Source: Mobula birostris | Lineage: Eukaryota | Direction: 5' to 3' | DNA: 64,000 bases | Assembly (NCBI RefSeq): GCF_030028105.1 | Contig: NC_092372.1 | Coordinates: 209,599,898-209,663,897, forward strand | Shown here: in pieces, positions 189-59,596 of the stretch | Layout of the letters: each line of letters begins with the position of its first letter | Numbering within the stretch: the first letter of the stretch is position 1 | Notes under the pieces: model-generated | What the model was told of the DNA's origin: nothing | The model's input: the letters and a program-made list of their open reading frames with translations, nothing else | Database searches by the model: none | Made by a program: the position numbers and the translations under genes

Positions 189-322
189 AAACAAAGAGAT
201 TCAGCAGATGCTAGAATTCTTGAGCAACACACACAAAATACTGAAGGAACTCAGCGAGTCAGGCAGCATCTATGAAGGGGAATGAACAGTTAATGTTTCA
301 GTCCAAGACCCTTCATCAGGAC
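189..322 (-). mobile_element. Penelope-like terminal repeat fragment with hammerhead-like motif
   Basis: Minus strand reads GTC-CTGATGA-A-GGGTCTTGGACT-GAAA-C-ATT-AACTG, followed by the family's GATGCTGCCTG...GAGTTCC...CATCTGC tract. Confidence 0.75.
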
Positions 323-7405: not shown

Positions 7406-7498
7406 ATGTGCCACCGTTGTCGGGGATCTGACTGTGGGGACATTGGAAGAAAAGAAGACCAGCGAGATAGCGAGAACGGCACAGAAGCCCCCGAGTGA
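7406..7498 (+). other. Upstream ORF (30 aa) in presumed shh 5'UTR
   Basis: ATG 7406 to TGA 7496-7498: [30 protein letters not shown]. Ends 2 nt before the main ATG. Translation not shown. Confidence 0.45.
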
Positions 7499-7500
7499 AC

Positions 7501-7797
7501 ATGATGCTGACAAGAATTGTGTTAGTGGGACTGATCTGCTGTTCTCTCGTCTCGTCTGTGAAGGCTTGTGGGCCGGGCCGGGGTTATGGGAGAAGGAAGC
7601 ATCCTAGAAAATTAACCCCACTGGCCTACAAACAATTCATTCCGAACGTGGCAGAAAAGACTCTGGGTGCAAGTGGCAGGTACGAGGGAAAGATTACCAG
7701 GAACTCGGAGAGATTTAAAGAACTGACTCCCAATTACAACCCAGACATTATTTTTAAGGACGAAGAGAACACGGGAGCGGACAGGCTGATGACACAG
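7501..7797 (+). CDS. shh: Sonic hedgehog coding exon 1 (signal peptide + start of Hh-N signalling domain)
   Basis: ATG 7501 gives [22 protein letters not shown]|[77 protein letters not shown]. Palmitoylated Cys codon at 7567. Donor CAG|GTACGG at 7797/7798, phase 0, as in vertebrate hedgehog genes. Confidence 0.97.
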
Positions 7798-8980
7798 GTA
7801 CGGGTCAAATCTCCAATTGTATTTTCCCCATTCCCCTTCAGTGTAGGCGGACTAGGGTCGCTGCCGGTGACGGATCAAACCAACATGTCGAAGGTGGGTA
7901 ATATCTGTTGGAGGAAAGTTTGGGGATTCTGGTGGATCTTTATTTTTCTACCCTTTTCTGAACCTTTCTTTTTCTTTTGCTTGTTAGGGGTGCGTGCAAC
8001 GCTTCTTGCGACTCGCTGTGTAAATGTGTGTGCAGTAATCCCCTGAGTTTGTACTTTGATCAATCAGAGTGTACACTGTGAAGAAGGGTCTCCCATGTGT
8101 ATGCATACTACCGGCCCACTTGCTAACCTGCAGTCCTGCGCGTTTACAGCTAACCTGCAGTCGTTTACTTCATCTCTCTCACTCTCTCTCTCTCTCTCTC
8201 CCCCCACCCTCCTCCCTCCTGTTAAAGTATCTTCTAAATCTCACAGTTCTGAGCGGAGATGACTTAATGAGGCTGACTTGTCTAAATATAGGAGAGATAG
8301 CGAGAGATAGACTGGGGGCGAAATCGACCCGTCTTTCCCTCGCTTGCCTTGTCTTTGCAATCTGTTCAATTGACGCCGTTCACATCGAAACTCTATCTTC
8401 TATCTCAGCGTTTACCGAAGCGTTAATTTATTGTCATTTCTTTAGGGGCAAATTGCAGTGCCAGAACCGCAGAAATATAAAGAAGGTCACAACCGTTCGC
8501 TTACTTGAAAGTTTTATTGCAAACCCTAAAAATTACAATCACAGCTAAGGTCATTGGAAGTTCCTCCTTAACGGGGCACAACGTGCCCATATGCGCGAGT
8601 GCCATTTGGTGGGACCGTCTAAAAGTCATTAAGATTTAATGCACATTTAAAAATCTCTATCTCTCGTTTAATGAACATGTATGATGAAACATAACCGAAG
8701 GGAAAGGCAGATGGTGCAATTTTTCCCCGAACAATGATATTACCCTTTTAAGCAATTAAAATCACCGAATGTTTACAAGCAGCGCGTGTCGTCCCTCGAT
8801 GCTTCATGTGGTCACCCTGTATCGCATTTTAAATAATATGAAGGCCACTGGCCGGGTTGTTCAGTGTGACACTGTGCACACAGCAAGGTTAAGACAAGTC
8901 CCGGATCTCCGACAGTCGCCGCGACAGTGAGACACGGTAACACCGAGAGAGACCTCCAGGTACCTCCGCCCCCCCCCCCA

Positions 8981-14990: not shown

Positions 14991-15349
14991 AGCGAGTCCT
15001 CTGAATCAGTGTACCGCACTCGTCGGCCTCGGAGGCGACTTTAGTTCACTTAAGCCCATCACCTCCGCTAGAGCAGAAGCCACCGACAGCAGCTCGCCAG
15101 AGCCCTCTGTCCTGGGCCGTGCTTTCAAGTTATCCCCAGGTATAGCTCATCGAAGTTTCTTCCTCTCTCAGGGATGAGGTCTTTGGAGCTTCTGTGGCGT
15201 TTCTGTAGCACCGTAGCCGGGCATGGCGGAGTTAACTTTAGACCAGCGCCCGCACAAACTTTTAAGTTAAAGGTGAAGCTTTTCCCGTATAAAGCAGAGG
15301 GCATAGGCACTCCTCTACTCCCAGTGTTTGCTTGCTGTAACCAGCTCAT

Positions 15350-20994: not shown

Positions 20995-21597
20995 GCAATT
21001 GTAGCATTTCCCAGTGGTCAACCATTTTAATTCCAGTCCCCTCTCCCATTCCACAACGTTGGTCCATGGCCTCCTCTGAGGCCGTTATCAGGTTGGAGGA
21101 GCAGCAACTCATATTCTGTCTGGGTAGCCTCAAACATATTGGCGTGAATATCGATTTCTCTAACTTTCGGTAATTTCTTCCCCTCTCCTTCCATTCCCTC
21201 CTCTGACTCACCTCTTACCTCTTCCCCTCATCAGCCCATCATCTCCCCTGGTGTTCCTCTTACTTCCCTTTTTCACATGGTATGTTCTCCTCTCCTATCA
21301 GATTCCTCCTTCTTCGGCCCTTTTTTTCCCCAATTATCGTCTCCCAGCTTCTCACTTCATCCCCCTTCCCAGACCCACCTGGCTTCATCTTTCACCTTTT
21401 AGATTGTACTCCTTTCCCACCCTCACCGTCTTATTCTGGCTTTCTCCACCTTCCTTTCCAGTCATCATGACAGGTCTCTGCCCAAAGCATCGACTGTTTA
21501 TTCCTTTATATATGCTGCCTGGCCTGCTGAGTTCCTCCAGCATTTTGTGTGCATTATTCTGGATTTCCAGCATCTGCAGAATACATTGGGTTTGTGT
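20995..21597 (+). mobile_element. Penelope-like element 3' portion (GIY-YIG C-terminus, pyrimidine tract, degenerate hammerhead)
   Basis: Broken frame FPVVNHFNSSPLSH...RLEEQQLIFCLGSL...GVNIDFSNF resembles the Penelope endonuclease C-terminus. Followed by a CT-rich tract and the terminal repeat. Confidence 0.75.
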
Positions 21598-23245: not shown

Positions 23246-23917
23246 AGTAGTAGTACTGTAGTAAGAGGTATCAGCATGATCTTATTGAATAGGGCAGCAG
23301 AAGCAAGTGGCCAAATAGCCTCCTCCCATTCGGCTTCTAATATTCTCCTGTACATTACTTTAAACTGGCCACCCACTACCACTGTCTGTAAACTGACAAA
23401 AAGTGGCAATATAACAGTGCTCACTGTTTTTGAACTTTGGATAAGGTATGAGCCATCAGAAAAGGTTGGACAAATGTAGGTTGTTTTCTCTGGATTGGTA
23501 GAGGCTGATAGAAATTTATAAAATTATGAGGCATAGGTAGGGTAGACAGTCTGACTCTATTATGCTAAGGTCAAAATAGTAGTGGACCTACATTTAAATT
23601 GATTGAGGGGAAGTTTAGATGAGGTGTGCAGGCAGGGCTCTTTGTATGAGGAGGGCTTTCTATGCAAAGAGTGCTCGGTGCCAGGGACAGTGGGGGAAGT
23701 AAATACTAATGTCATCTTAAGGAAGCTTTTGGATAAACACCCAAATATGCAGAGAATGGAAGGACGCAGACCTGCAGACTTAATGGATCAGTTTAATTTG
23801 ACATTGTGTTTGCCAGAGAGTCTGTTCTGATGCTACACTGTTTAGTATTCTGTGCTACAGTTCATACTGTGTCTGTTCATTCCATCACCAATGAGGTCCT
23901 GTTGCTCTTTCCAACAG

Positions 23918-24612
23918 AAAACTCGGTAGCTGCGAAGTCAGGAGGCTGTTTCCCCGCCTCGGCTCGAGTCAGCCTGGAGAATGGCAACAGCAAACGGCTC
24001 AGGGACCTGAAGCCGGGAGACCGGGTGCTGGCAGCAGACGAGCTGGGCAACCTTCTCTACAGCGATTTCATCATGTTTCTGGACAGAGCGGAGGAGGTCG
24101 AGAAGGTTTTCTACGTGATCGAGACTCGACAGCCTCGCCGGAAGCTCGCCCTCACTGCCGCGCATTTACTCTTTGTCGGGCACAGTTCGAGCGAGGGGCA
24201 GATCGAGTTCAGGGCAAGGTTCGCCAGCGACGTGAGGCCGGGCCAGCTGGTGTACGTCACCGATGGGGACGGTCAGCAGCTCCAGCCTGCCATGGTCGAC
24301 AAGGTTTACCTGGAGGAGATGACAGGTGCTTACGCCCCACTGACTGTCCAGGGCACCCTCGTGATCAACCAGGTTCTGGCCTCTTGCTATGCCGTGATAG
24401 AGGAACACACTTTGGCCCACTGGGCTTTCGCTCTTGTGCGGATGAAGCATGCAGCCACATCTTTGCTTCTGCCCAGCGACCCACTAATGGTCAACAGTAC
24501 TGTCCAGGAAGATGGAGTCCACTGGTACTCCAGTGCCTTGTATCAGATAGGCAGATGGGTTTTGGATGACGCATCAATTCATCCTTTGGGAATGACGTTG
24601 GACTCTAGCTGA
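23918..24612 (+). CDS. shh: Sonic hedgehog coding exon 3 (autoprocessing site, Hint domain, sterol-recognition region)
   Basis: Acceptor CTCTTTCCAACAG|[12 protein letters not shown]|CFP cleavage site (Cys codon 23947). Hint motifs [25 protein letters not shown] and ASCYA, plus C-terminal GVHWYS. TGA at 24610-24612. Spliced CDS is 1254 nt = 417 aa + stop. Confidence 0.97.
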
Positions 24613-25590: not shown

Positions 25591-25989
25591 CGCGACTTTT
25601 GATAATCGAGAGGTGAAGAAAGGCGTTGTGTATAGATACTTTAAAATATTTTGCAAAGTGAAAAGAGATGTTTATGTTTTAGGGTCAATCGTTTACGCCA
25701 CAACCTACTGGAGTTGGAATGGATGTATTTTCAACGGCAGGGTCCAAAAGACCAGCCATGTTTTACATTCTATTTGAATCATTCATTCTGCAACTTATAA
25801 AACAAACTGTAAGAAACGGACATATTGTTTGTAGCTATTATTTGGTCGCTTACGATCAACAGTAATTTCCCACCTCAATGCTGCTTTTCATAATTTTTTT
25901 AAATAAAATTTCTCTAAAGTCTAAACGCAGCTGTAATATGTCGGAGAACTGAAGTAAACGGAAGTGTCTGCACTGCAAAAATAAAAATC

Positions 25990-26240
25990 CGCAATGTATG
26001 TATGACCGATGTTGGAGAGCTTGGGCAAGACGCACACACTCACACCATGTTGGAAGAACTCGGCAAGTCAGGCAGAATCTATGAAGTGGTATACACAGAC
26101 GGCGTTTCGGGCCGAGATCCTTCATCACACCTTTAACAGGAGTCCTTTTGAAGGGTCTCGGCCCCATACGCCGACTGGCGATTCCCCTCCAAGATGCTGC
26201 CTGGCTGGGTGAGTTCCTCCAGCATTTTGAATGTGCACGT
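25990..26240. mobile_element. Degenerate foldback Penelope-like repeat
   Basis: Arms CGTTTCGGGCCGAGATCCTTCATCA and TGAAGGGTCTCGGCCC... lie in inverted orientation. Confidence 0.7.
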
Positions 26241-29234
26241 TTCCTTCTAAACACAAACCATGCCGCGAGTTTAAACCCCCTTTCCCAATGGAAACCTAAA
26301 CTGAGGAGTATCTGGCCAACTGCATTCATTGCAACAGATGGCCGTGGCGCCAAGTCATTGGGTAGATTTAAAGCGGAGGTTGACAGGTTCTAGGGTAGCC
26401 AGGGCGTCAAATGTTACGGGAGAGAAGGCAAGAGAACGGGTTTGAGAGCGATAATAAATCAACCATTGTGGAATGTCGGAGCAGACTCGACGGTTCCAAT
26501 GGCTTAATTCTGCTCCTATAGGTGTTTTATGATCTTATGAATTCAGAGAATCACTGGATCACCCAGAAGGCCATTTGGCCCACTGTGCGTACTAGCAAAA
26601 CACCCATTCCCCCCCCCCCCCACTTGCCTTACAAATGCCTTCAATTTCCTTTCAATGATGGTTCTGCATCCACCGCTGGAGGTGCAAATCAACGAGTAAC
26701 CGCAGCCCCACTCAGCTCTGAACCCACACGCCCTTTGACCACCAACACCCGCTGTCCCTTTAATTGCCCCCGGCGCTTGATGGACGGTTCTCAGGTACAC
26801 GATACATTCTCGGATGAGAGCAGTAACTGTTTGCATTTTCGCGATAGGATGCGCTGATTGAAGCGGTATCAATTTCTCGCAAACTCAGATTAAAACTAGT
26901 GGTCTTTTCCAAACCTCGCATGCAGGCGAAGAGACGACAAAGAATTGGTTTCCTAAGAAAGCTGTCTCTTAGTTTCCTTCTGAAGTAGTTACTATAATTA
27001 ACTAGAGGGGGGAAACCGTGCACAGACACTGATGATTGAAGGGATTTCATACGTATTTTAAATATTCAAGTTGCCCTGACAAGTAAGCGCTAACTATATG
27101 GAGCATAATGACAGCTTTAGTTTGCCTTGCGCACCACTTAACTGCTCTGGATTCTGTAATATTTACATGTGGAAAGTTGAACCAAGCTACCAAATGCAAC
27201 GGTCCCCACAGGCAACCGCAGACAAATAAGATTGCCAGTATTAATAATGGAGACAGTGGTCTTGTAGGCTCGCCCTCAAATTAAATATAACACTGTTTTA
27301 GTGCAAGGCATGAAAATTAACCTGTGTAAACAGAGGTCAGGACGCTTCCCTAAAGGCTGTACAGCGATGACTTAACACTCATTTCCAGGTTCACAAGCCT
27401 ACTCAAAGAGACATCGCCTAACCTCAATCCTAATTTGTTGGTTTAAAAGCAACTGAGGTTGCTGGAGTAGCTTAGCTTAAAAAAAAATGCACTAAACAAA
27501 ATTCATAGAAAGCCCTTGTATAAAATAAAATTACCAGGCAAATATTAATTGGTGACTTTTTAACTACAGATGCAGAAATTCTGAAATACAAGCGGTAATA
27601 GGACTGTAAGACATAGAAGCCGAATGAGGTCATTCGGTCCATCAAGTCTGCTCTGCTGTTCCTTCAAGGTTGATAATCCCCTTCCCCCATCTTCTCCCCG
27701 TAACCTTTAGCACCCTGACCAATCAAGAACCTATCAACCTCCATTTTAAACATACCCAATGACTTGGCCTCCACAGCCATCTGTAACAATGAACTCCACA
27801 GACTCACCACCCTCTGGCTAAAGAAATTCCTCCTCACCTCTGTTCTTAAAATTGGAAATAGTCTGCTGGATCGGCAAAATCAGTGGAGAGGAAAATAGAG
27901 AAGCATTCTGTGTCCAGATGAGGGGTCTCTACCTGAAGCATCACTGTCCATTTCCCTCCATTGATGCTGCCCGACCCACAGAGTTCCTCCCAATTAAACT
28001 AGTTTCTCAGGTGTTGTCTTCAAGCATAGGGTGGCATGGTGGCGCACTGGTTTGCACAACACTGTAACAGTGCCAACAGTACAGGGTCAATTCCCACCAC
28101 TGTCTTTAAGGAGCTTGTTCATTCTCCCTGTAACCATGTGGGTTTCCTCTGGGTGTTCTCATTTCCTCCCACAATCCAAAAATGTACAGGTTAGTAGGTT
28201 AGTTCCTCACGTGAGTGTAATTAGGTAGTATGAGCTCGTTGGACCAAAGAGGCCTGTTACCATTATGTAACTGCACTAAACTGTCCCTCTTCCTCCCTCA
28301 TAGGTGCTGCCTGCCCTGTCGATTATTTTCAGTATTTTCTTTTAACCTGCCCTTCCTCCAGAAGCCAGATTAGAGAATCACGGGAATCAGGTATCATCTC
28401 GTTGCCCGATGGGATACAACATCTGAGACATGGTGGCTCAGCTAGTAGATGTGCCATCTCACAGCACTAAAGACCAGGTTCGATCCTGACCTTGGGTGCT
28501 GACTGTCTGGAGTTTGCATGTTCTACCTGTGACCACATTGGCCTCCTCCTGCACTCCAAAGACATCCTGCTGGTAATTTACTTTACTTAAGCCTATTACC
28601 TCCATTGGTCCAAGGCTGCCTACCGAACCTCACCTGAATCATCTACCAGTCTCTCATGTTGTCTTCAGGTGTAGCCCATCTTCAAAGATCCTTCCTTTCT
28701 CCGGGATGAGATCTTTGGAGCTTCTGTGGCCATTTCTGTAGCTCTGGGTTTTTATGGGATGGGGTTGCTAGCCCCCTGCCCAACCCTCCTCCTTTTACAG
28801 CCGGCTTGGGACTGTCCATGGCAGAGTTAGTTTAACTGGCTGCTGCAGAGTGTTGAGTTAGTGGTAGAATATGGGAGGGGATGATAGGGATGTGGGGAGA
28901 ATAGAATATACAATTGGTCTAGAATTAATAGTCAGCGTAGACTCAGAGGGCTGAATGGCCTACTTCCATACTGTATCTCTTCTTTAAGGTGAACAGAGGA
29001 AAGTATAGGTGGATGATTGAGAGTAGGTGGTGCTTGGAACACATTGCCAGGGTGGTGGCAGATGCAGCTGCATTAGAGATCACCCGGCTGAAAGAAAAAC
29101 GGAGGGTTATGAGCTGTGTAGGAGGGAAGGGTTAGATTGATCATGGAGTCCTTTAAAAGGTTGGCACAGCATCATGAGCCAAAGTGCCCATGCTGCTCAG
29201 TTCTATGTTCAATATTCCATAACTGTCTGACCAG

Positions 29235-41635: not shown

Positions 41636-43619
41636 TCAATAAATCCATTATAGAATAATAACCTTAACAGAATCAATGAAAGTTCTTCATGCTATCAAAG
41701 TGAAAATCTTGCACTTTGCCATATCCCACTGTCACCTCTTGCCCAGTTAACCTATCCTTACTCTTTGCAGACCCTCTGCAACCCCCGCTGAGCACTTTGC
41801 CAACCAACATTTTGTTTACAGCATCTAAACTGAAATGCTTTGAAGCCAGATTGCAGTTAGTTACCACCTCAGTACTGATCCCTGCTTGCAACAGTCTGAA
41901 AATAGCATAGTTATTCACTATGTCTGTTCCCTTTCCTTTAAGCAATTCTCTGTGCACAAATATTATCTCACACTTGTGAAGTCTTCACTTGGCTAACAAC
42001 TGTTTTTCGATCTTACATATCCCATGGTTACAACCTGCAACACACAAAATGCTGGAGGAACTCAGCAGGTCAGGTAATGACTACGGGGCGAAGCAGTGGA
42101 CTTTTTGGGCAGAGGCCTTTCACTGGGATTGCTCATCTGTAGATGCTGCCTGACCCACTGAATTCCTCCGGCATCTTGCTGAAGATTTCCAACATCTGCA
42201 GTATCTCTTGTATTTCCTTAAATATTTCCGGCAGATTTATTGAAAGTTACTTGGCCCGCGGTGACTCGGTTCAGTATTAGTGGGATTCTCAATGACTGTT
42301 TCTTTCTTAGTGATGCATTCCAGCACTTTACGACCATAAGATATAGGAGCAGAATTAGGCCATTTGGCCCATCGAGTCTGCACCACCATTCCATCATGGC
42401 TGATTTATTATCCTTCTCAACCCCATTCTCCAGCTTTCTCCACATAACTTGTCATGCCCTTGGGCTCCACAGCCATCTATGGCAATGAATTCCACAGATT
42501 TACCACCCTCTGGCTAAAGAAATTTTTTGCAATGTCTGTTCTAAGCAGACGTCCCTCTAGTCTGGGGCTGTGCCTGCTGGCCTAGACTCCCCCACTATAG
42601 GAAACGCCTTCCCCACATCCACTCTATCCAGGCCTCTCAATATTCAATAGGTTTCAATGCAATCCCCGCCCCCCATTCTTCTGAACTCCAGTGAGCACAG
42701 GCCCAAGCCATCAAATACTTCTCACATTCACCCTTTCCTTCCCAGAATCATACTCGTGAACCTCCTCTGGACCCTCTCCAACTCCCTTTGCTCCACTGAT
42801 CTTTGAATTTTCTCCCCATTTTGAAAATAGTCTATATTTTTATTCCTTCTACCAAAGTGCATGATCGTACAGTTCCCGTAACTATATTCAATCTGCCACT
42901 TCTTTGCCCATTCTTCTAATCCTCACATCGTCCGCAAACTCACAAAGCTATCAATTCCATCATCCAAATCATTAACATACAATGTGAAAAGAAGTGGCCC
43001 TAACAGCAACCCCTGCAGAACATCAATAGTCACCAGCAGACAACCAGAAAAGGCCCCCTTTTTTCCTGCCAGTCAGCCAAACTACCTATGCTCATATTTT
43101 CCCTGTAATACCATGGGCTCTTGTTAAATAGCCTTAGGTGTGGCACCTTGCCAAATGCATTCTGAAAATCCAAGTATACAACTTCCACTGACTCTCCTTT
43201 GTCTATCCTGCCTGTTACTTCCTTAAGAATTACAACAGATTTGTCAGGCAAGATTTCCCTTTAAAGAAACCATGCTGACTTGGGCCTATTTTATCATGTG
43301 CCTCTGAGTACTATGGAGCTTCATCCTTAATAATTCAAGTTAACTGGCCTATAATTTCCTTGTTCTGCATCCCTCTCTTCTTAAAGAGAGGAGTGACATA
43401 TGCAATTTTTCAGTCCTCCCAAACCACTGCAGAATCTAGTGATTTTTGAAACATCACTACCAATGCCTCCACAATCTCTTCAGCCACCTCTTTCCGAACC
43501 AAATGGGGTGTAGTCCATCTGGTCTTGGAGACATATCTACCTTCAGATCTTTCAGATTCCCAATCCCCTCTCCTTATTTCTGCCCCCGACATGTTTGAAT
43601 TTCTGGCGTATAGCTAGTT

Positions 43620-45571: not shown

Positions 45572-47021
45572 TGTGTCTTCCACGGTGAAGACTGACACAA
45601 AATGCTTATTAATTCCATCTGCTATTTCTCTTTCCCCCATTACTACCTCCCCAGCATGGCTTTTTAGTTGCCTTCAGCTGTTTTTTAAAAGCTTCTCCAT
45701 CCTTTAACTTCCCACTAATTGTTACTCCATTATATGCCCTCCCTTTCTTTTTGCTGTCTTTCCTTGTCAGCCCAGTTTGTGTCATCCTCCTTTTAGAATA
45801 CTTCCTTGGGATGTATTTATTTTGCACCTTCCGAATTGCTCCCAGAATCTCCATTCATAACTGTTATGCCATCATCCCTGTTAGTGTCCCCTTCAATTAG
45901 GTTTGGTCAGCTCCTCTCCCATGACTCTAAAATTCCCTTTACTCTGTAGACTATGATACTGATATATCTGACTTTATCTTCTCCCTCTCAAACTGCAGGG
46001 TGAATTCTATCATTACGATCACAGTCTCCTAAGGGTTGCTTTATTTTAAGATCCCTAATCAAATCTGGTTCATTAAACAACACTCAATCCAGAATTACCT
46101 TTTCGCTAGAGGGATAAACCACAAGCTGCTCTAAAGGGCATCTCATAAGCATTCTACAAATTCCCTCCCTTCAGATCCAGTACCAACCCAATTTTCCCAA
46201 TTTACCGGTATATTGAAATTCCCCATGACAATTGTAACATTGTCCTTTCTACATGCCTTTTCCAACTCTTGGTATAATTTATATCTATATTGTGGCTACT
46301 GTTCAGAGGCCTGTATATAATTCCTGTCAGGTCTTTTCACCCTTGAAGTTTCTTAACTCAACCCAGAATGATTCTACATCTTCTGATCCTATGTAACCAC
46401 TTTCTAAGGATTTGATTTCATTTTTTATCGACAGAGCCACCCCATCCCCTCTGCCTACCTGCTGGTCCTTTCAATACAAGTTGTACCCTTGGATGTTAAG
46501 CACCCAATTATGATCTTTTTTTCAGCTATGACTCAGTGATGCCCACAATGTTGGACCTGCTAATCTCTAACTGTGCTACAAGATCCATTATTCCATACAC
46601 TGTGCACATTTAAATATTACACCTTCAGTCCTGTATTCATCACCCTTTTCAATTTTGCCCCCATGTTACACCTTAACTAATCCCACTGCCCCATCTTCTG
46701 CCTGTCCATCCTCCCAGTCTCACTACACGCTGCATCAACTGCTCCATGCTTAGCCCTATCACGCCAGTTTCACGCCACTGCAGAATTAGTTTAAACTCTC
46801 CCCAACAGTGCTAGCGCACCTGCCCACAAGGATATTGGTCCCGCTTGGATTCAGGTGTAAGCCATCCTTCTTGTTCAGGTCATACCTTCCCCAGAAGAGA
46901 TCAGGATGATCCAGAATTTGAAGCTGTGCCCCCTGCACCGAACCTTCAGCCATGCATTCATCCGCCAACCCTCTCTGGCACGTGGTACAGGCAGCACTCC
47001 AGAGCTTGCTACCCTTGAGGT

Positions 47022-47243
47022 AACAACAGGAATTCTGCAGATGCTGGAAATTCAAGCAACACACATCAAAGTTGCTGGTAAACACAGCAGGCCAGGCAGC
47101 ATCTATTGGAAGAGTTTCAGTCGACGTTTCAGGCCGAAACCCTTCACCAGTCCTGACGAAGGGTCTCGGCCTCAAACGTCGACTGAAACTCTTCCAATAG
47201 ATGCTGCCTGGCCTGCTGCGTTTACCAGCAACTTTGATGTGTG
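47022..47243. mobile_element. 222-bp foldback Penelope-derived element with 12-bp TSD
   Basis: TACCCTTGAGGT at 47010-47021 and 47244-47255. Inverted arms 47059-47145 and 47158-47244. Confidence 0.9.
47148..47185 (+). ncRNA. Type I hammerhead ribozyme-like motif (representative copy; G12 mutated)
   Basis: CAGTC-CTGACGA-A-GGGTCTCGGCCT-CAAA-C-GTC-GACTG. Stem I CAGTC/GACTG is perfect and the GUC cleavage triplet is present, but GAAA is changed to CAAA. Confidence 0.7.
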
Positions 47244-50044
47244 TACCCTTGAGGTCCTGCTTTTTAGCTTTCGAACTAACCTCCTGTATTCTCTCTTCAG
47301 GACTCCATCCATTTTGCTACCTATGGCATTGGTACCAATATGTACCACGAATTCCGGCTGTTCACCCTCCCCCTTTAGAATGCCGCAGACCCGATCCGAG
47401 TCCTCCCTGACTTTGGCACATGGGAGGCAACATACCCATCCAGGTGTCTCTTTCACGTTCACAGAATCTCCTGTTTGCCCCTCTTAACTGTGGAATCCCC
47501 CTTCGCTTCTGAGCACAACGCTGCATGCCCCCCTGGAAGATGGGCCCCTCACCCACCCCACAACAGTATCCAAAGCGGTATACTTATTATCGAGGGGACC
47601 GGCCACAGGGGTACTCTGCACGGGCTGCCTATTCCCTTTCCCTCTCCCTGCAGTTGCCCAGGTACCTGCCTCCCGCATCTACCTCCCTTACGAGGTGGCT
47701 CCTATCACTTCATTTCCCCTTAAGAGCTGAAGGTCATCTAGCAACCAATCCTGTTCCTTAACACGGTCTCTGAGGAGCTGCAGCTCGATGCAGCTTGCGG
47801 ATGTAGTTTTCAGGGCGATCGGAGGGTCGCCCAGAGTTCCCAAATTTTCACACAAAGAACAATACCACTAACCCCGGATCCATTCTCAATGCACTCGCTG
47901 TGCACTAATAGGCGAAGATTAAAAACTCACTGGAAACTTGCTGCATTTTCTGGCAAGAGATGCCGGAATTTGATCTGTTTTTCCTTCCCGCTCGTGAACA
48001 AGTTCACAGCTCATTAAGGACGTTATGTGCAAATTTCCCCTCACCTCGTTGCTGACGGCAATGAAGGGGAAATTATTCCGTTTGTGTAGCGCCCGTAGCA
48101 AAGTTAAAACATCCCAGGGCACTTTTCCACCTTCCCAAAATGCAGTCACTGTCAGCGTTGTTTACTCTGCGGTGCCTGGGGTACGAACCGCGAGAGTCTA
48201 AACTCTCGATTATCTGTCAGTATCGATTCTCCGCTCTGGCTGCGGAAGATGGAGCTTCCTCTGAGGAATACACGAATTAAGTGGGGTGAAGGAAGGCTGC
48301 TCTTGGGGTCTAAAAGCAATTTAATCCTGTAGACGGACTAACAACTTGGAATTGACCCGAATATTTTTTAAAAATGTAGGAATATTTTCACTTGCAGTTA
48401 AATTTGCGTTGTTGAACGCAGGCAGCCCGGAGTTAACGATTCTGAAGAGGTTAACACTACAGTAAGGTTGCCTGAGATTATCCCGCAGCGTTTCCGTTTT
48501 GCTGCTGTCATATGATTGTTCACAATAGTGTTTGTTCCTTCCACGTGTCTTCCCTTCCACGTTATCTGCCCGTTCCCGAGGTGATTTAAAAGTGCCTCCC
48601 TGGGTGCAGAAGGACATCATTTCCTCAGGGGGCAGGATCGCCTTCGGAAACGGACGACGGGGCAGGGAGGGGACAGAGAGACGGGGCGGGTGGGTGATGG
48701 CGGAGTATCAGGATCCGCCGCTGCCAGACCGCGAGAGGTGGAGGAGAGGAGGATGTCATATTGTTCCTGGGCTGAGATGACATCGCAAAGGTTCCTTAAG
48801 TATGGACATCCGCTGCAAAGCTCCGGGAGTAGTGCTGTCAAATTGCCGCATTCAGCTGAGACCACCAGGAACAAGGTTTCCCAATCTGGGGTTCAGGGAC
48901 CCTCCATTAATGGTAACATACAGCTCGGGAATCCCTGACTGGCAACTTGTCCGGGATCTGTTGCCTGATTTTGGAGTGTCTCCAATCAAAACAACTTTTA
49001 TAGACGACCTGTCACCGCCGTTTTAACTTCTGTTGTTTATTTCAAGATTAAACTTGATAAAAAGAATTAACACGCCCTAGAGCTCTTACTGTTCTTAATG
49101 CCATTGGTCAATACATTCAGCAGTGCTAGCTCATAGCACCATGTTTTTTTATGTTAAATGTTTAATTTTTTCTTGTGAATGCTGCTTATACGATGCTATA
49201 TGCCTGCGATGCTGCTATGTTAGATTTAATTGTGCCTGCGCACACATACACCGTACCTATATCCCACCCAGCTGCACCGTGGCTTGCTAAGGCAACTCAT
49301 GTGCTTCTGCAGATGCTGGAAATCCGGAGAAACACACACAAAATGCTGCACTGGTGAGGGGTCTCAGCCTGCAACATTGACTGTTGCATCATCCTCCACA
49401 GGTGCTGCCTGACCTGCTGAGTTCCACCAGCATTTTGCGTGTGTGTTATTCTGGTGTGGCAACTACGCAGCCCATGACAAGAAACTGCCGAGGGCTGGGG
49501 ACAGAGCTCAGCACATCACAGAAATCACACTCCCTCCTTGGACTGGACACTCTTCATTGCCTTGGTAACATTGCCAGCATAATCAAAGATCCCAGACATT
49601 TTCCCTTCTCCCCTCTTCCATTGGGTAAAAGCCTGAAAACATGTTGGGCAGCTTCTTCCCCAGTGTTATAAGAATACTGAGTGATTCGCTAGTGCAACAA
49701 GATGGACTCTCGACCTCACAATCTGCCTCATTGTGACCTTGCACCTTACTATCTACCTGCACTTCACTCTCTCTGTACCGTAACACTTCAATCTGTACTC
49801 GGTTATTGTTTCATCTTGCACTTCCTCAATGCCCTGTTGTAATGAATTGATCTATATGGATGGCAGGAAAGTTTCTCACTGGGCCTCAGTACATGTGACA
49901 GTAATAAACCAATTTGCCAATTTCCTTTTGTATATGACATAAACTGATTTTTGACTTTTGGCTTTGGCTGTTTTTCCCATCTGAAACAGTAAGGCCAGAT
50001 CAAGGGCAGTTTAGTTTACATAAGCCATAAATGTCCGGTATGAA

Positions 50045-50890
50045 GATACTCAGCAGGACAGGCAGCATCTATGGAGAAGAGAACATTCAACGTTTCAGGC
50101 AGAGACTCCTCAGCAGGACTGGAGAAAAGAAGACGAGGAGTCAGAGCTAGAAGGTTGGGGGGGGGGGAGAAACACAGCGTGATGGGTGAAACTGGGAGGA
50201 GGGACAGGTGAAGTAAAGAGCTGGGAAGTTCATTAGTGAAAGAGGTACAGGGCTGGAGAATGGGGAGTCTGATAGCAGAGGACAGAAGGCCGTGGAAGAA
50301 AAGGGGGGAGGAGCACCAGAGGGAGACGATGGACAGGCAAGGAAATACGGTGAGAGAGAGAAAAGGGAAGGGGGAATGGAGAAGTGCGGGGGGGGGGGGG
50401 TGGGACATTACCAGAAGTTTCAGAAATCGATGTTCATGCAATCAGGTTGGAGGCTACCCAGACAGAATACAAGATGTTGCTCCTCTAACCTGAGTGTGGC
50501 CTCTTCACTCTCTCGCTTTATCTCTTTGCCTGCCTATCACCTCCCTCTGGTGCTCCTCCCCCCTTTTCTTTCTTTCATGGCCTTCTGTCCTCTCATTAGA
50601 TTTCCCCTTCTCCAGCCCTGTATCTCTTTCACCAATAAACTTCCCACTCTTTACTTCACCTCTCCCCCTCTCCCGGTTTCACCTGTCACCTACCGCCTTG
50701 TACTTCTTCCTCTCCTCCCCCCACCTTCTTGCTCTGACTTCTAATCTCTTTTCTCCAGTTCTGCTGAAGGGTCTCAGCCCGAAACATCGACTGTACTCTT
50801 TTCCATAGATGCTGCCTGGCCTGCTGAGTTCCTCCAGCATTTTGTGTTTGTTGATTGGATTTCCAGCATCTGTAGATTTTCTCTTGCTTG
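50045..50890. mobile_element. Inverted pair of Penelope-like 3' portions
   Basis: Minus copy about 50045-50505 and plus copy about 50506-50890. Hammerhead-like motifs at about 50085-50122 (-) and 50756-50793 (+; CAGTT-CTGCTGA-A-GGGTCTCAGCCC-GAAA-C-ATC-GACTG). Confidence 0.8.
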
Positions 50891-51139
50891 CGAATATAAA
50901 GATGCTGTCTCTTTTACAGTAGAGAATCCCAGTTCAAAGTGATGGCATATTCACAGCTGACTGTCAGGTCACAAGTCCTGTGGCAGCATTGTACTCAGTG
51001 TTTTCCATAATGTAGGATTGATGAGTTCAGATTTGGAGATGAACCACTCCCACTTTGAAATGACCTTCCATATATATGGATTGTCAGGAAATATGGCCTG
51101 GTTATCAGATCTACTGTACAGACAACTGATTCTGCAGAT

Positions 51140-52150
51140 AACGCAAACACGAGGAAATCTGCAGATGCTGGAATTTCAAGCACTTTTATTTGTGATTCTG
51201 CAGATGATGGATTCCAGGGCATCACACACAAAATGCTGGAGGAACTCAGAAGGTCAAGAACATCTATGGAAATGAATAAACAGTTGATATTTTGGGCTGA
51301 AACCCTTCATCAGGACTAGAAAGGAAGGGGGAAAGATGAGAAGGTGGGAAGAGCAGAAGGGGTACAAGCTAGAAGGTGATAGGTGAACCTGAATGGGTGG
51401 AGGATGAAGTAAAAAACAGAGGTGATAGATGCAAAAAAAGGGCTGGAGAAGAAGGAATTTGATAGAAGAGGAGAGTGGGCCATGGGAGAAAGGGAAGGAG
51501 GAGGGGCACCGAGGAAGTGATAGTCAGATGAGGAGAAGAGAAAGGTAAGGGGAGGGGCAGAGTGGGGAATTGAAGAAGACAGAAGATGTAGGGAGAAATT
51601 ACCAGAAGTTAGAGAAATTGATGTTATACCATCAGGTTGGAGGCTACTCCAGTTTGAGGATAAAGGGGAAGCCTTTTAGGACCGAGATTAGGAAAAACTT
51701 CTTCACACAGAGAGTGGTGAATCTGTGGAATTCTCTGCCACAGGAAACAGTTGAGGCCAGTTCATTGGCTATATTTAAGAGGGAGTTAGATATGGCCCTT
51801 GTGGCTAAAGGGATCAGGGGGTATGGAGGGAAGGCTGGTACAGCGTTCTGAGTTGGATGATCAGCCATGATCATACTGAATGGCGGTGCAGGCTCGAAGG
51901 GCTGAATGGCCTACTCCTGCACCTATTTTCTATGTTTCTATGTTTACCCAGATGGTCTATGAGCTGTTGCTCACTGTCCAACCTGAGAGTGGCCTCATCT
52001 TGGCTGTAGAGGAGGCCATGTACTCATATATCAGAATGGGAGTGGAGATTGGAATTAAAATGGTTGGCCACTGGGAAATCCTGCTTTTTTGAGGATGGAG
52101 CGAAGGTGCTCGACAAAGCAGTCCCCCAATCTATATTGTATCTCACCAAT
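51140..52150 (-). mobile_element. Penelope-like element interrupted by young CR1 3' end (51650-51944, +)
   Basis: Hammerhead-like motif at 51281-51319 (-), purine tract and GIY-YIG C-terminal remnant. CR1 piece translates LRIKGKPFRTEIRKNFFTQRVVNLWNSLP. Confidence 0.8.
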
Positions 52151-55374: not shown

Positions 55375-56076
55375 TTTCCAACATGTTGGTCCATGGCCTC
55401 CTCTACTGGAATGATGAGACCATTCTCAGGGTGGAGGAGCAATATCTCATATTTCATCTGGGTAGACTCCAACCTGATGGCCATGAACATTAGTTCCTCT
55501 AACTTCCAGTGACTTTTCCTCATGCCCCTTCCCTCTTCTTCAATTCCCCTCTCTGGCCCCGCTCTTATTTTTTCTCTTCTCGCCACCTGCCTATCACCTC
55601 CCCCCAGTGCTCTTTCTCCTTCCCTTTCTCCCATGGCCCACTCTCCTCTCCTATTGGATCCTTCTTTTCCACTTATCACCTCGTAGCTTCTTACTTTATC
55701 CCCCTCCCCTACCTGGCTTCACCTATCACCTATCCTGACGAAGGGTCTCGGCCTGAAAAGTCAACTGCACCTCTTCCTATAGATGCTGCCTGGCCTGCTG
55801 CGTTCACCAGCAACTTTTATGTGTGTTGCTTGAATTTCCAGCATCTGCAGAATTCCTGTTGTTCACCTATCACCATCTAGCTTGTACTCCTTCCCCCCCC
55901 CCCCCACCTCCTTATTCTGGCTTCTTCCCCCTTCCTTTCCGGTCCTGATGAAGGGTCTGGACCCAAAACGTCGAGGGCTTACTCCTCTCCATAGATGCTG
56001 CCTGACCTGCAGAGCCCCTCCAGCATTTTGTATTTGTTGCTAAGGATTTCCAGCATCTGCAACATTTCTTGTGTTT
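55375..56076 (+). mobile_element. Penelope-like element with a younger terminal-repeat copy (55731-55861) inserted inside
   Basis: MLVHGLLYWNDETILRVEEQYLIFHLGRLQPDG. TSD TTCACCTATCACC at 55718-55730 and 55862-55874. Hammerhead-like cores at 55735 and 55945. Confidence 0.85.
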
Positions 56077-57723: not shown

Positions 57724-58100
57724 CAACACACACAAAATGTTGGAGGAACTCAGCAAACCAGGCAGCATCTGTGGAAAAAAGTACAGTCGACATTTCGGGC
57801 CGAAACCCTTCGGCAGGACTGGAGGAAAAAAAGCTGAGGAGCAAATTTAAAAGGTGGGGGGAGGGGAGTGAGAAACACGAGGAGATAGGTGAAACTGGAA
57901 TGGGGAGGGAATGAGGTAGAGCTGGGAAGTAAATTGGTAAAAGAGACAGAAGGCCATGGAAGAAAGAAAAGTGGGGGAGGAGCACCAGAGGGAGACGACG
58001 GGCAGGCAAGGAGATAAGGTGAGAGAGGGAAAAGGGGGTGGGAAATGGTGAAAGGGAGGGGGATGGGGGGCATTACCAGATGTTGGAGAAACCGATGTAA
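57724..58100 (-). mobile_element. Penelope-like 3' portion with hammerhead-like motif
   Basis: Minus strand CAGTC-CTGCCGA-A-GGGTTTCGGCCC-GAAA-T-GTC-GACTG at 57784-57821. Confidence 0.8.
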
Positions 58101-59596
58101 ACCGTGTGGTATAAGCTGGCGGCAAAGACATGTTCCCAGAAAGGATACAAGGCTGCAGCAGCAGGTCTGGGTAAGCACGTGGTTGAAGAGTCGGAGAGCA
58201 GCAGGGATCACAGAGAGGGGGCGGCGAGAGAGGGTTTCACTGAACTCCCGTAGGGAGAAGATTTAAACTTTTTCAGGCTAGGCATCCCTGGAAGAGATTT
58301 CACAGTGTAGTGATCCAATCACAAACAAGAGAAACTCTGCAGCTGCCGGAAGTCCAAGCAACACACGCAAAATGGACAGCAGAAATGTGGCAAATGTTCA
58401 GGGGATATTTGCATGGGGTTCTGCGTAGATACGTTCCAATGAGACAGGGAAAGGATGGTGGAGTACAGGAACCGTGGTGTACAAAGGCTGTTGTAAATCT
58501 AGTCAAGATGAAAGAAAAGCTTATGAAAGGTTCAAAAAATTAGGTAATGATAGAGATCTAGAAGATTATAAGGCTATCAGGAAGGAACTTAAGAATGAAA
58601 TTAGGAGAGCCAGAAGGGGCCATGAGAAGGCCTTGGTGGACAGGATTAAGGAAAACCCCAAGGCATTCTACAAGTATGTGAAGAGCAAGAGGATAAGATA
58701 TGAAAGAATAGGACCAAACAAATATGACAGTGGAAAAGTGTGTATGGAACCGGAGGAGATAGTAGAGATACTTAATGAATACTTTGCTTCAGTATTCACC
58801 ACGGAAAAGGATCTTGGCAATTGTAGGGATGACTTGCAGTGGACTGAAAAGCTTCAGCATGTAGATATTAAGGAAGGGGATGTGCTGGAGCTTTTGGAAA
58901 GCATCAAGTTGGATTAAGTCAACGGGACCGGATGTGATGTACCCCAGGCTACTGTGGGAAGCAAGGGTGGAGATTGCTGAGCCACTGGCGATGATCTTTG
59001 CATCATCAGTGAGGACAGGAGAGGTTCCGGAGGATTGGAGGGTTGCAGATGTTGTTCCCTTATCCAAGAAAGGCAGTAGGGATAGCCCAAGAAATTATAG
59101 ACCAGTGAGTCTTACTTCAGTGGCTGGTAAGTTGAGGGAGAAGATCCTGAGAAGCAGGATTTATGAACATTTGGAGAGGCATATGACCAGGAATAGTCAG
59201 CATGACTTTGTGAAAGGCAGGTCGTGCCTTACAAGCCTGATTGAATTTTTTGAGGATGTGACTAAACACATTGATGAAGGTAGAACCGTAGATGTAGAGT
59301 ATATGGATTTTAGCAAGACATTTGATAAGGTACCCCATTCAAGGCTTATTGAGAAAGTAAGGAGGCATGGGATCCAAGGGGACATTGTTTTGCAGATCCA
59401 GAACTGGCTTGCCCACAGAAGACAAAGAGAGGTTGTAGACGGGTCATATTCTGCATGGAGGTCTCTGACCAGTGGTGTGCCTCAGGGATCTGTCCTGGGA
59501 CTCTTACTCTTTGTGATTTTTATAAATGACCTGGATGAGGAAGTGGAGGGATGGTTTAGTAAATTTGCTGATGACACAAAAGCTGGGGGTGTTGTG

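Follow-up and report, generated by a model that had tools for sequence, protein, structure and literature searches.

How a nearly perfect hairpin came to lie between two copies of a short direct repeat is the question raised by positions 47022-47243 of a 64,000-nucleotide stretch of the Mobula birostris genome (NC_092372.1, 209,599,898 to 209,663,897; the whole stretch is referred to here as the window). Because its sequence is also found directly behind the ends of GIY-YIG endonucleases at other places in the window, we identify the insert with high confidence as the 3′ end (a minimal hammerhead plus tail) of an endonuclease-containing (EN+) Penelope-like element (PLE), present as two inverted, 5′-truncated copies of which only one has the tail. 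It is most likely a by-product of that element and not a unit moving as a palindrome. We propose, with a probability of roughly 0.6, that one event produced it, during which the two nicked strands of the target each primed reverse transcription on element RNA. The window is a hedgehog locus of vertebrate type (Pfam HH_signal at 7474-7800, Hint at 23797-24609), and the insert lies about 22 kb beyond the Hint exon.

The 12-mer TACCCTTGAGGT occurs at 47010-47021 and again at 47244-47255, has no third occurrence on either strand of the window and is not extendable; the sequence enclosed (47022-47243) is 222 bp long. A direct repeat of at least 12 letters was found in 5 of 5000 random pairs of window positions at equal spacing. 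The host sequence is the remnant of an esterase encoded by ORF1 (open reading frame 1) of a long interspersed nuclear element (LINE), on the minus strand and of the CR1/L2 type. Its right flank matches the 'ORF1-encoded protein' of PDB entry 4c1b (E 2e-5), which we take to be a CR1/L2-clade protein, and also resembles SGNH-type proteins (relatives of PF13472 and PF17182; 3 of 55 candidates). When the insert and one duplication are excised, the host frame runs unbroken across the site.

Within the insert, two arms of 87 bp each (47059-47145 and 47158-47244) pair with three mismatches (47084/47219, 47130/47173 and 47138/47165) around a 12-bp centre. The predicted fold has an energy of -184.2 kcal/mol (z -23.3), and none of 200 shuffled sequences folded equally well. 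The first-pass annotation of this DNA had placed the 12-bp duplication, the 222-bp length, the arms with their mismatches, the centre and the location in CR1 ORF1 correctly. It had also described the whole as a foldback palindrome, and the arms do pair; however, the 37 nt at the left end (47022-47058), on which that annotation made no remark and which prove diagnostic, are unpaired and have no partner arm, so the insert is not a full palindrome, and no inverted repeat links its two termini. The insert lacks poly(A), and both arms cover the identical 87 bp. Letters that are rare in the family are common to both arms (at three positions, at most 1.2%, 4-7% and 16% of the summed family depth), and because they are shared, the two arms likely derive from one source. 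The first-pass annotation had taken a shared variant to be absent from other copies, but its privacy to this locus is unsupported; since the remaining depth with those letters amounts to thousands of units, they may mark a small subfamily. The suggestion that one arm was templated from the other is better replaced by a single source template for both, as the tail could not come from a tail-less arm that simply snapped back.

The plus arm opens with a minimal type I hammerhead motif, of a kind known from PLE repeats (PMC4209133). Helix I is formed by 47148-47152 with 47181-47185, CUGACGA occupies 47153-47159, helix II is formed by 47161-47164 with 47169-47172, and GUC lies at 47178-47180; by inspection, an unpaired base precedes helix II and there is a palindromic CG. 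The GAAA of the core reads CAAA through a change at 47173, where 93% of the family depth has G. On the minus strand the corresponding box is CUGGUGA (CTGGTGA in DNA) and helix I is absent. Both descriptions agree with the earlier ones; the claim of a hammerhead on both strands, however, comes down to the inverted duplication of one motif, and an Rfam scan of the window returned no hammerhead match. Of 15 copies in the window, 4 (B, I, G- and O; several copies are lettered in the table) satisfy a loose pattern for both core boxes. Forcing the plus hammerhead to form within the hairpin would cost about 44 kcal/mol, with helix II placed one base off the predicted fold. Judged from its sequence, neither hammerhead is intact, and the insert is predicted to be inert as a ribozyme. 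We also rejected hammerhead cleavage as the origin of the 5′ edge, the predicted cut (after 47180) falling about 32 nt inside the truncated copies, or stubs.

About a dozen places in the window share the sequence of the insert. At four of them longer copies contain a coding remnant of a GIY-YIG C-terminus, followed by a pyrimidine-rich untranslated region and then by the insert sequence. A profile built from three of the endonuclease ends retrieved 45 proteins, many of which are host gene models that have incorporated the repeat; a weak GIY-YIG match was obtained for only 2 of the 20 scanned, that of P0006 to PF01541 (E 0.0021) being under the curated cut-off. P0011 has motifs of the reverse transcriptase (RT) type, a Cys-rich linker and a GIY-YIG motif, and matches the window remnants at 57-74%; the remnants at the four loci match P0006 and P0011 at 52-79%. 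Relatives of P0011 carry PF00078, PF26215 and PF01541, the closest named ones being in stingray, devil ray and shark annotations. The Cys-rich linker is present in P0006, P0011, P0021 and P0037, and judged by this linker, as such linkers are described in PMC8557442, the parent would fit a Neptune- or Nematis-like element. The window remnants alone gave no Pfam match (six host or family fragments, then three more), a word search with the 41-amino-acid endonuclease remnant found no homolog, and no conserved ORF was evident by eye in the stub. Pattern scans of DNA gave 0 matches in viral contigs and 0 in metagenome contigs; a single match in a genome contig, bacterial and with only 24 bases in common, was rejected as chance.

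To compare copies we counted from 47149 as +1, the first base of hammerhead helix I. The window contains five inverted pairs (starting at 47022, 49295, 42037, 25975 and 50048), and in all five the tail is found at a single end. Among them are the three older fold-backs that had been reported at 25990-26240, 42036-42212 and 49300-49450; the larger pair at 50048-50893 was absent from that list. In four of the five the tail-less arm reaches further 5′ than the tail arm (about -1 versus +5 to +10, +5 versus +79, +9 versus +50, and -379 versus -257), the pair at 25975 showing no clear order. The five pairs have five different junctions. Across 19 arms, 9 start at about -5 to +9, 4 start at +50 or later and 6 extend at least 58 nt upstream. 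Ten loci were scanned for target duplications, and four have one of 12-13 bp (12 bp here and 13 bp at three others); at the other six there is no duplication above 7 bp (none at the old copies E, F, G, H and J; 7 bp at D). The 5′ end of solo stub B was set by its duplication, since the local alignment continued into the host copy. The two solo stubs, one belonging to an old subfamily and the other to a young one, could represent a class resembling short interspersed nuclear elements (SINE-like) or plain run-off products. Neither head-to-tail hammerhead tandem units (0 of 13 tandem-repeat rows belong to the family) nor a partial-tandem full-length copy was found within the window.

Family-wide behavior was assessed with contigs of four out of 24 public runs, representing at most 3 samples, aligned to 46400-47900 at 88% likeness. 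In run X1 the summed depth across the insert was 1.0-3.2 million, compared with 7-13 for single-copy contigs; depth is no copy number, but this suggests a copy count of the order of 100,000. In X1, 299 contigs break off before 47022, 350 before 47028 and 181 behind 47244, each with a loose end and a long, mixed flank. In each large run, 299-320 contigs are loose before 47022 and 181-218 behind 47244, and the long-end and short-end clusters are separate in three large runs. Because loose ends with mixed flanks pile up at two places, the family has one long end and one short end. The contigs contain 940 joints along this region; no two of the 15 listed share a breakpoint, and their depths reach 265; in 9 of these 15 one arm ends at 0 to +8. 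The centre of the insert itself is consistent with a 3-nt CAG/CTG overlap between the arms, a putative overlap that would require one CpG change and one wobble, and at the listed joints elsewhere the overlap is 0-4 letters. No empty-site joint is among the 15, and none of the contigs listed spans the exact centre; that centre is the reference sequence, so the copy number of the exact junction is not readable from contigs. In a contig from a second organism (organism B), the right duplication and its flank are linked to 26 bases of the element with 2 differences, below our 31-letter bridging rule, which is suggestive of an insertion shared with a close relative. A perfectly symmetric fold-back junction, 47106/47197, with one letter between the arms, has a depth of 175-195 (175 in X1) and is also present in organism B; it is a candidate hot spot, or else a fold-back that multiplied.

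In the mechanism we favor, the endonuclease would cut both target strands 12 nt apart, giving two 3′ ends. The top-strand end would prime at the long start site, at the end of the tail (+133), and produce the tail-bearing arm, while the bottom-strand end would prime at the short start site (+95) and produce the tail-less arm. Both complementary DNAs (cDNAs) would stop near the 5′ edge of the hammerhead (+1), likely the 5′ end of the RNA; their ends would then join, possibly by the CAG/CTG overlap, and the gaps would be filled by repair. The near-perfect hairpin would result from both copies extending, by chance, almost to the same edge. Primer matches to the loose-end consensus are 0-2 nt. A purified PLE protein is reported in PMC11167929 to nick and extend both strands with uncut RNA as template and no need for primer homology; reverse transcription starts internally, at two sites bracketing the tail, and the protein is predicted to be a dimer. 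A single source template for both arms is expected under double priming, which fits the rare letters common to them. Also in favor are the published PLE layout, the separate clusters of long and short ends, the one-ended tail in all five window pairs, the further reach of the tail-less arm in four of them, the four duplications of 12-13 bp, and the position of 9 of 19 arm starts and of one arm end in 9 of the 15 listed joints close to helix I. The idea in the first-pass annotation that such loci are recurrent fold-back products of Penelope reverse transcription is supported.

Several points weigh against priming from both strands. The element studied in vitro belongs to the Poseidon clade and has its start sites in AC-rich RNA (PMC11167929), unlike the sense strand here, where both ends are rich in U and G. 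Fragments made by classical twin priming do not overlap (PMC2837659), and overlapping arms need strand displacement, two pseudo-long terminal repeats (pLTRs) or two RNAs. The sample is small, with five pairs of which four are old, and in pair G the tail-less arm ends about 20 nt short of the short site. Joints cluster near +1 in part of necessity, as the reference lacks any family sequence upstream of 47149, and nine of those listed are marked 'between: not known'. Furthermore, when compared with the consensus patterns for initiator-like sites and splice acceptors, the +1 edge fits both equally. Penelope is described as having an internal promoter (PMC2377424) and an intron that ends at helix I (PMC4209133). 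Finally, published self-priming on antisense RNA (PMC3846280) predicts a similar layout.

This last alternative, in which antisense RNA or the first cDNA folds back at a short palindrome near the start of the hammerhead, a hairpin is copied from it and the endonuclease trims one tail at integration, is the strongest competitor, although we consider it unlikely. Self-priming has been put forward where PLE copies are inverted head to head and the junction holds a palindrome (PMC3846280), and the tail has been ascribed to endonuclease resolution (PMC8557442). The CAG-TC-CTG mini-palindrome in the centre and the symmetric junction from 47106 to 47197, with its single intervening letter and depth of 175-195, speak for it, and rare variants common to both arms fit it equally well. 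Simple cDNA snap-back, however, was rejected in both of its forms: a tail-less cDNA cannot provide the tail, and a tail-bearing one predicts a longer tail arm, the opposite of what is found in pairs D, E and G and in the joint 47054-47149. Only the antisense-RNA version survives; for it, both the 3′ end of the antisense RNA and the stop must be defined, and the template used in vitro is sense RNA (PMC11167929).

It is improbable that the insert is a discrete non-autonomous hairpin element copied whole by Penelope proteins, the retrozyme- or MITE-like entity (MITE, miniature inverted-repeat transposable element) that had also been proposed. Some other junctions do reach depths of 100-265, compared with 7-13 for single-copy contigs, so that a few fold-backs may have multiplied at least tenfold, and a contig belonging to a different locus runs across a comparable centre, with 5 gaps and 6 other letters. 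Yet the breakpoints differ among the five window pairs and in all 15 joints listed of the 940, against an arm depth of 1-3 million; the termini are not inverted repeats, tandem units are absent from the window, both hammerheads are broken, and forcing the plus one has the energetic cost given above. Within the limit that the exact centre is itself the reference, a discrete family is disfavored, because breakpoints vary by locus, the very observation that the first-pass annotation had named as speaking against it. Less probable still is that two separate insertions hit the same site, or that a lone insertion was afterwards made palindromic or homogenized by hairpin repair or gene conversion. 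Stubs B and C did insert into older family copies, and cruciform conversion could render arms alike; but a single duplication frames both arms with none inside, both arms carry letters found in at most 1-16% of the family, and all 5 of 5 pairs have a single tail. A fold-back artefact of assembly or library preparation is hardly credible, for although no listed contig spans the exact centre, there are three differences between the arms, 37 extra bases in one of them, a clean duplication, a continuous host frame and the same layout in older pairs, and the organism B contig joins element sequence to the right flank.

For priming from both strands we can also offer a more specific and decidedly tentative form, in which one protein dimer would act on one RNA: the leading RT would run from the short site to the 5′ end of the transcript at helix I, and the trailing RT, starting from the end of the tail, would displace the first copy and stop early. 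If true, this rule alone would account for the tail at a single end, for the greater length of the arm without it and for tail-only inserts ending at the short site, as well as for solo stubs of 131-133 nt, possibly a SINE-like class, and ray genomes would contain records of the process numbering of the order of 100,000. Double priming as such, if true, would explain the long-unexplained habit of PLEs to form inversions. The origin of tandem and inverted PLE structures is termed undefined in PMC8557442, and the main text of PMC11167929 reports two start sites and both-strand extension without a link to inverted pairs. In a literature search with most subscription papers and older PLE reviews outside its coverage, 'twin priming' was absent from the PLE-focused papers, three general papers mention both PLEs and twin priming, and the priming explanation may be unpublished. 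The value of this locus is that of a minimal case: the family is abundant, has clean duplications of 12-13 bp and has two discrete ends, and the priming model is therefore testable by counting over one assembly. Such hairpins may also be mistaken for MITEs or microRNA precursors in annotation.

Table. Coordinates of the insert, its host sequence and related copies in the window.
Feature	Position	Strand	Remarks
Left target-site duplication, 12 bp	47010..47021	+	repeat comparison
Penelope-type tail, 37 nt, unpaired	47022..47058	-	stops at family long end, as copy 55731-55861 does
Left arm: 5′-truncated pLTR copy with tail	47059..47145	-	extends to last bases of hammerhead CUGANGA box
Centre, arm-arm junction	47146..47157	.	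mostly right-arm sequence
Right arm: pLTR copy without tail	47147..47243	+	from hammerhead helix I to family short end
Minimal type I hammerhead motif	47148..47185	+	inspection against features described in PMC4209133
Right target-site duplication	47244..47255	+	first base also compatible with right arm
Host LINE ORF1 esterase remnant, C-terminal part	46786..47009	-	one frameshift further on
Host LINE ORF1 esterase remnant, N-terminal part	47256..47483	-	protein/structure matches
Older inverted pair D	49295..49449 (approximate)	.	tail arm short, cut off at +79; start of tail-less arm about +5
Older inverted pair E	42037..42218 (approximate)	.	tail-less arm from about +1 to +9; tail arm from +50
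Older inverted pair F	25975..26236 (approximate)	.	decayed tail at left; tail-less arm from +1
Long inverted pair G (about 850 bp)	50048..50893	.	tail-less arm starts 379 nt upstream of helix I, within GIY-YIG end; tail arm 257 nt upstream
Young solo stub B, hammerhead to tail, 131 nt	55731..55861	+	13-bp duplication 55718-55730 / 55862-55874; within older family copy
Older solo stub I, hammerhead to tail, 133 nt	190..322	-	13-bp duplication 177-189 / 323-335
Tail-only insert C	51140..51192	-	13-bp duplication 51127-51139 / 51193-51205; family sequence ends at short end
Longest GIY-YIG endonuclease remnant of parent family in window (broken)	51946..52150	-	protein comparison

Further copies and matches were noted in the window. 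Tail-only inserts of about 50 bp occur at 51140-51192, where the host sequence is the tail of an older family copy, and at 58320-58372. A long tail-less copy at 57724-58100 on the minus strand lies inside another LINE with no evident inverted partner or duplication, and breaks the pairing rule; the family copies at 21000-21590 lie within a hedgehog intron. Among the retrieved proteins, the host gene models P0001, P0005, P0014, P0018 and P0019 begin or end in element endonuclease sequence; they include a G-protein-coupled receptor, ATP synthase c, a LAMP2-like and a RecQ5-like protein, and this could be annotation noise or exonisation. At 28780-28833 (minus strand) there is a Twister-P1-like ribozyme match (34.9 bits, E 0.0008), which falls short of the 67.2 set as cut-off for that family; 43 bp of the sequence around it are repeated at 15168-15209, and the match may be the 5′ end of a different retroelement.

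Among known systems, MITEs are short and non-coding and have a strong hairpin and a target duplication, and the insert is alike in these respects. Unlike MITEs, its ends are not mutual inverted repeats, its junctions vary and its parent is a retroelement; the uniform length and inner structure of MITEs were not found either, the 15 listed joints all being different. The non-LTR retrozymes of bioRxiv 10.64898/2026.07.22.740005 are likewise short, non-coding and derived from PLE pLTRs with a type I hammerhead, but they are head-to-tail tandems with intact ribozymes, in contrast to an insert that is head-to-head, single and broken; the account there, in its accessible part, covers tandem units and monomers, not inversions. 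Twin or dual priming of L1 (PMC2837659) resembles the present case in its one target duplication, its two inverted fragments and, under the mechanism proposed here, a second primer from a second nick. In L1, however, the arms flank a deletion, whereas here they overlap, there is no poly(A) and the outer ends lie at family-specific sites; because of the overlap and the absence of poly(A), the insert falls outside the L1 definition of twin priming. PAc, the Poseidon element of Anolis carolinensis (PMC11167929), likewise has two ends about one tail apart downstream of the hammerhead and a primer match of 0-2 nt. Its inserts, like those here, retain the hammerhead core upstream of the cut site, which argues that the template was uncut RNA; by its linker motif PAc belongs to another clade, and its AC-rich start sites differ from the U/G-rich ones of this family.

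The closest counterparts are the EN+ PLEs with inverted pLTRs (PMC8557442; Pen2a_Av, PMC3846280; Penelope of D. virilis, PMC2377424). As described in PMC8557442, an inverted 5′-truncated copy lies next to the 5′ end in these elements, and a tail of 30-40 bp is often found at one end only. Like them, the insert has a head-to-head 5′-truncated copy, a one-end tail and a target duplication, together with a hammerhead in the terminal repeat and a parent that encodes RT plus, at its C-terminus, a GIY-YIG domain. Unlike them, it has no ORF at all, and its arms are stubs of 97-125 nt that make it nearly a pure hairpin; its family's duplications of 12-13 bp also differ from the 8-10 bp given for A. 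vaga PLEs in PMC3846280, where self-priming on an antisense template was proposed. Pairs of hammerheads on opposite strands, 100-700 bp apart, have been described in Schistosoma (PMC4209133), and new PLE insertions have a median length of 128 bp (PMC9977147). The insert at 47022-47243 is the smallest version of the published PLE layout, in a family member that is new here.

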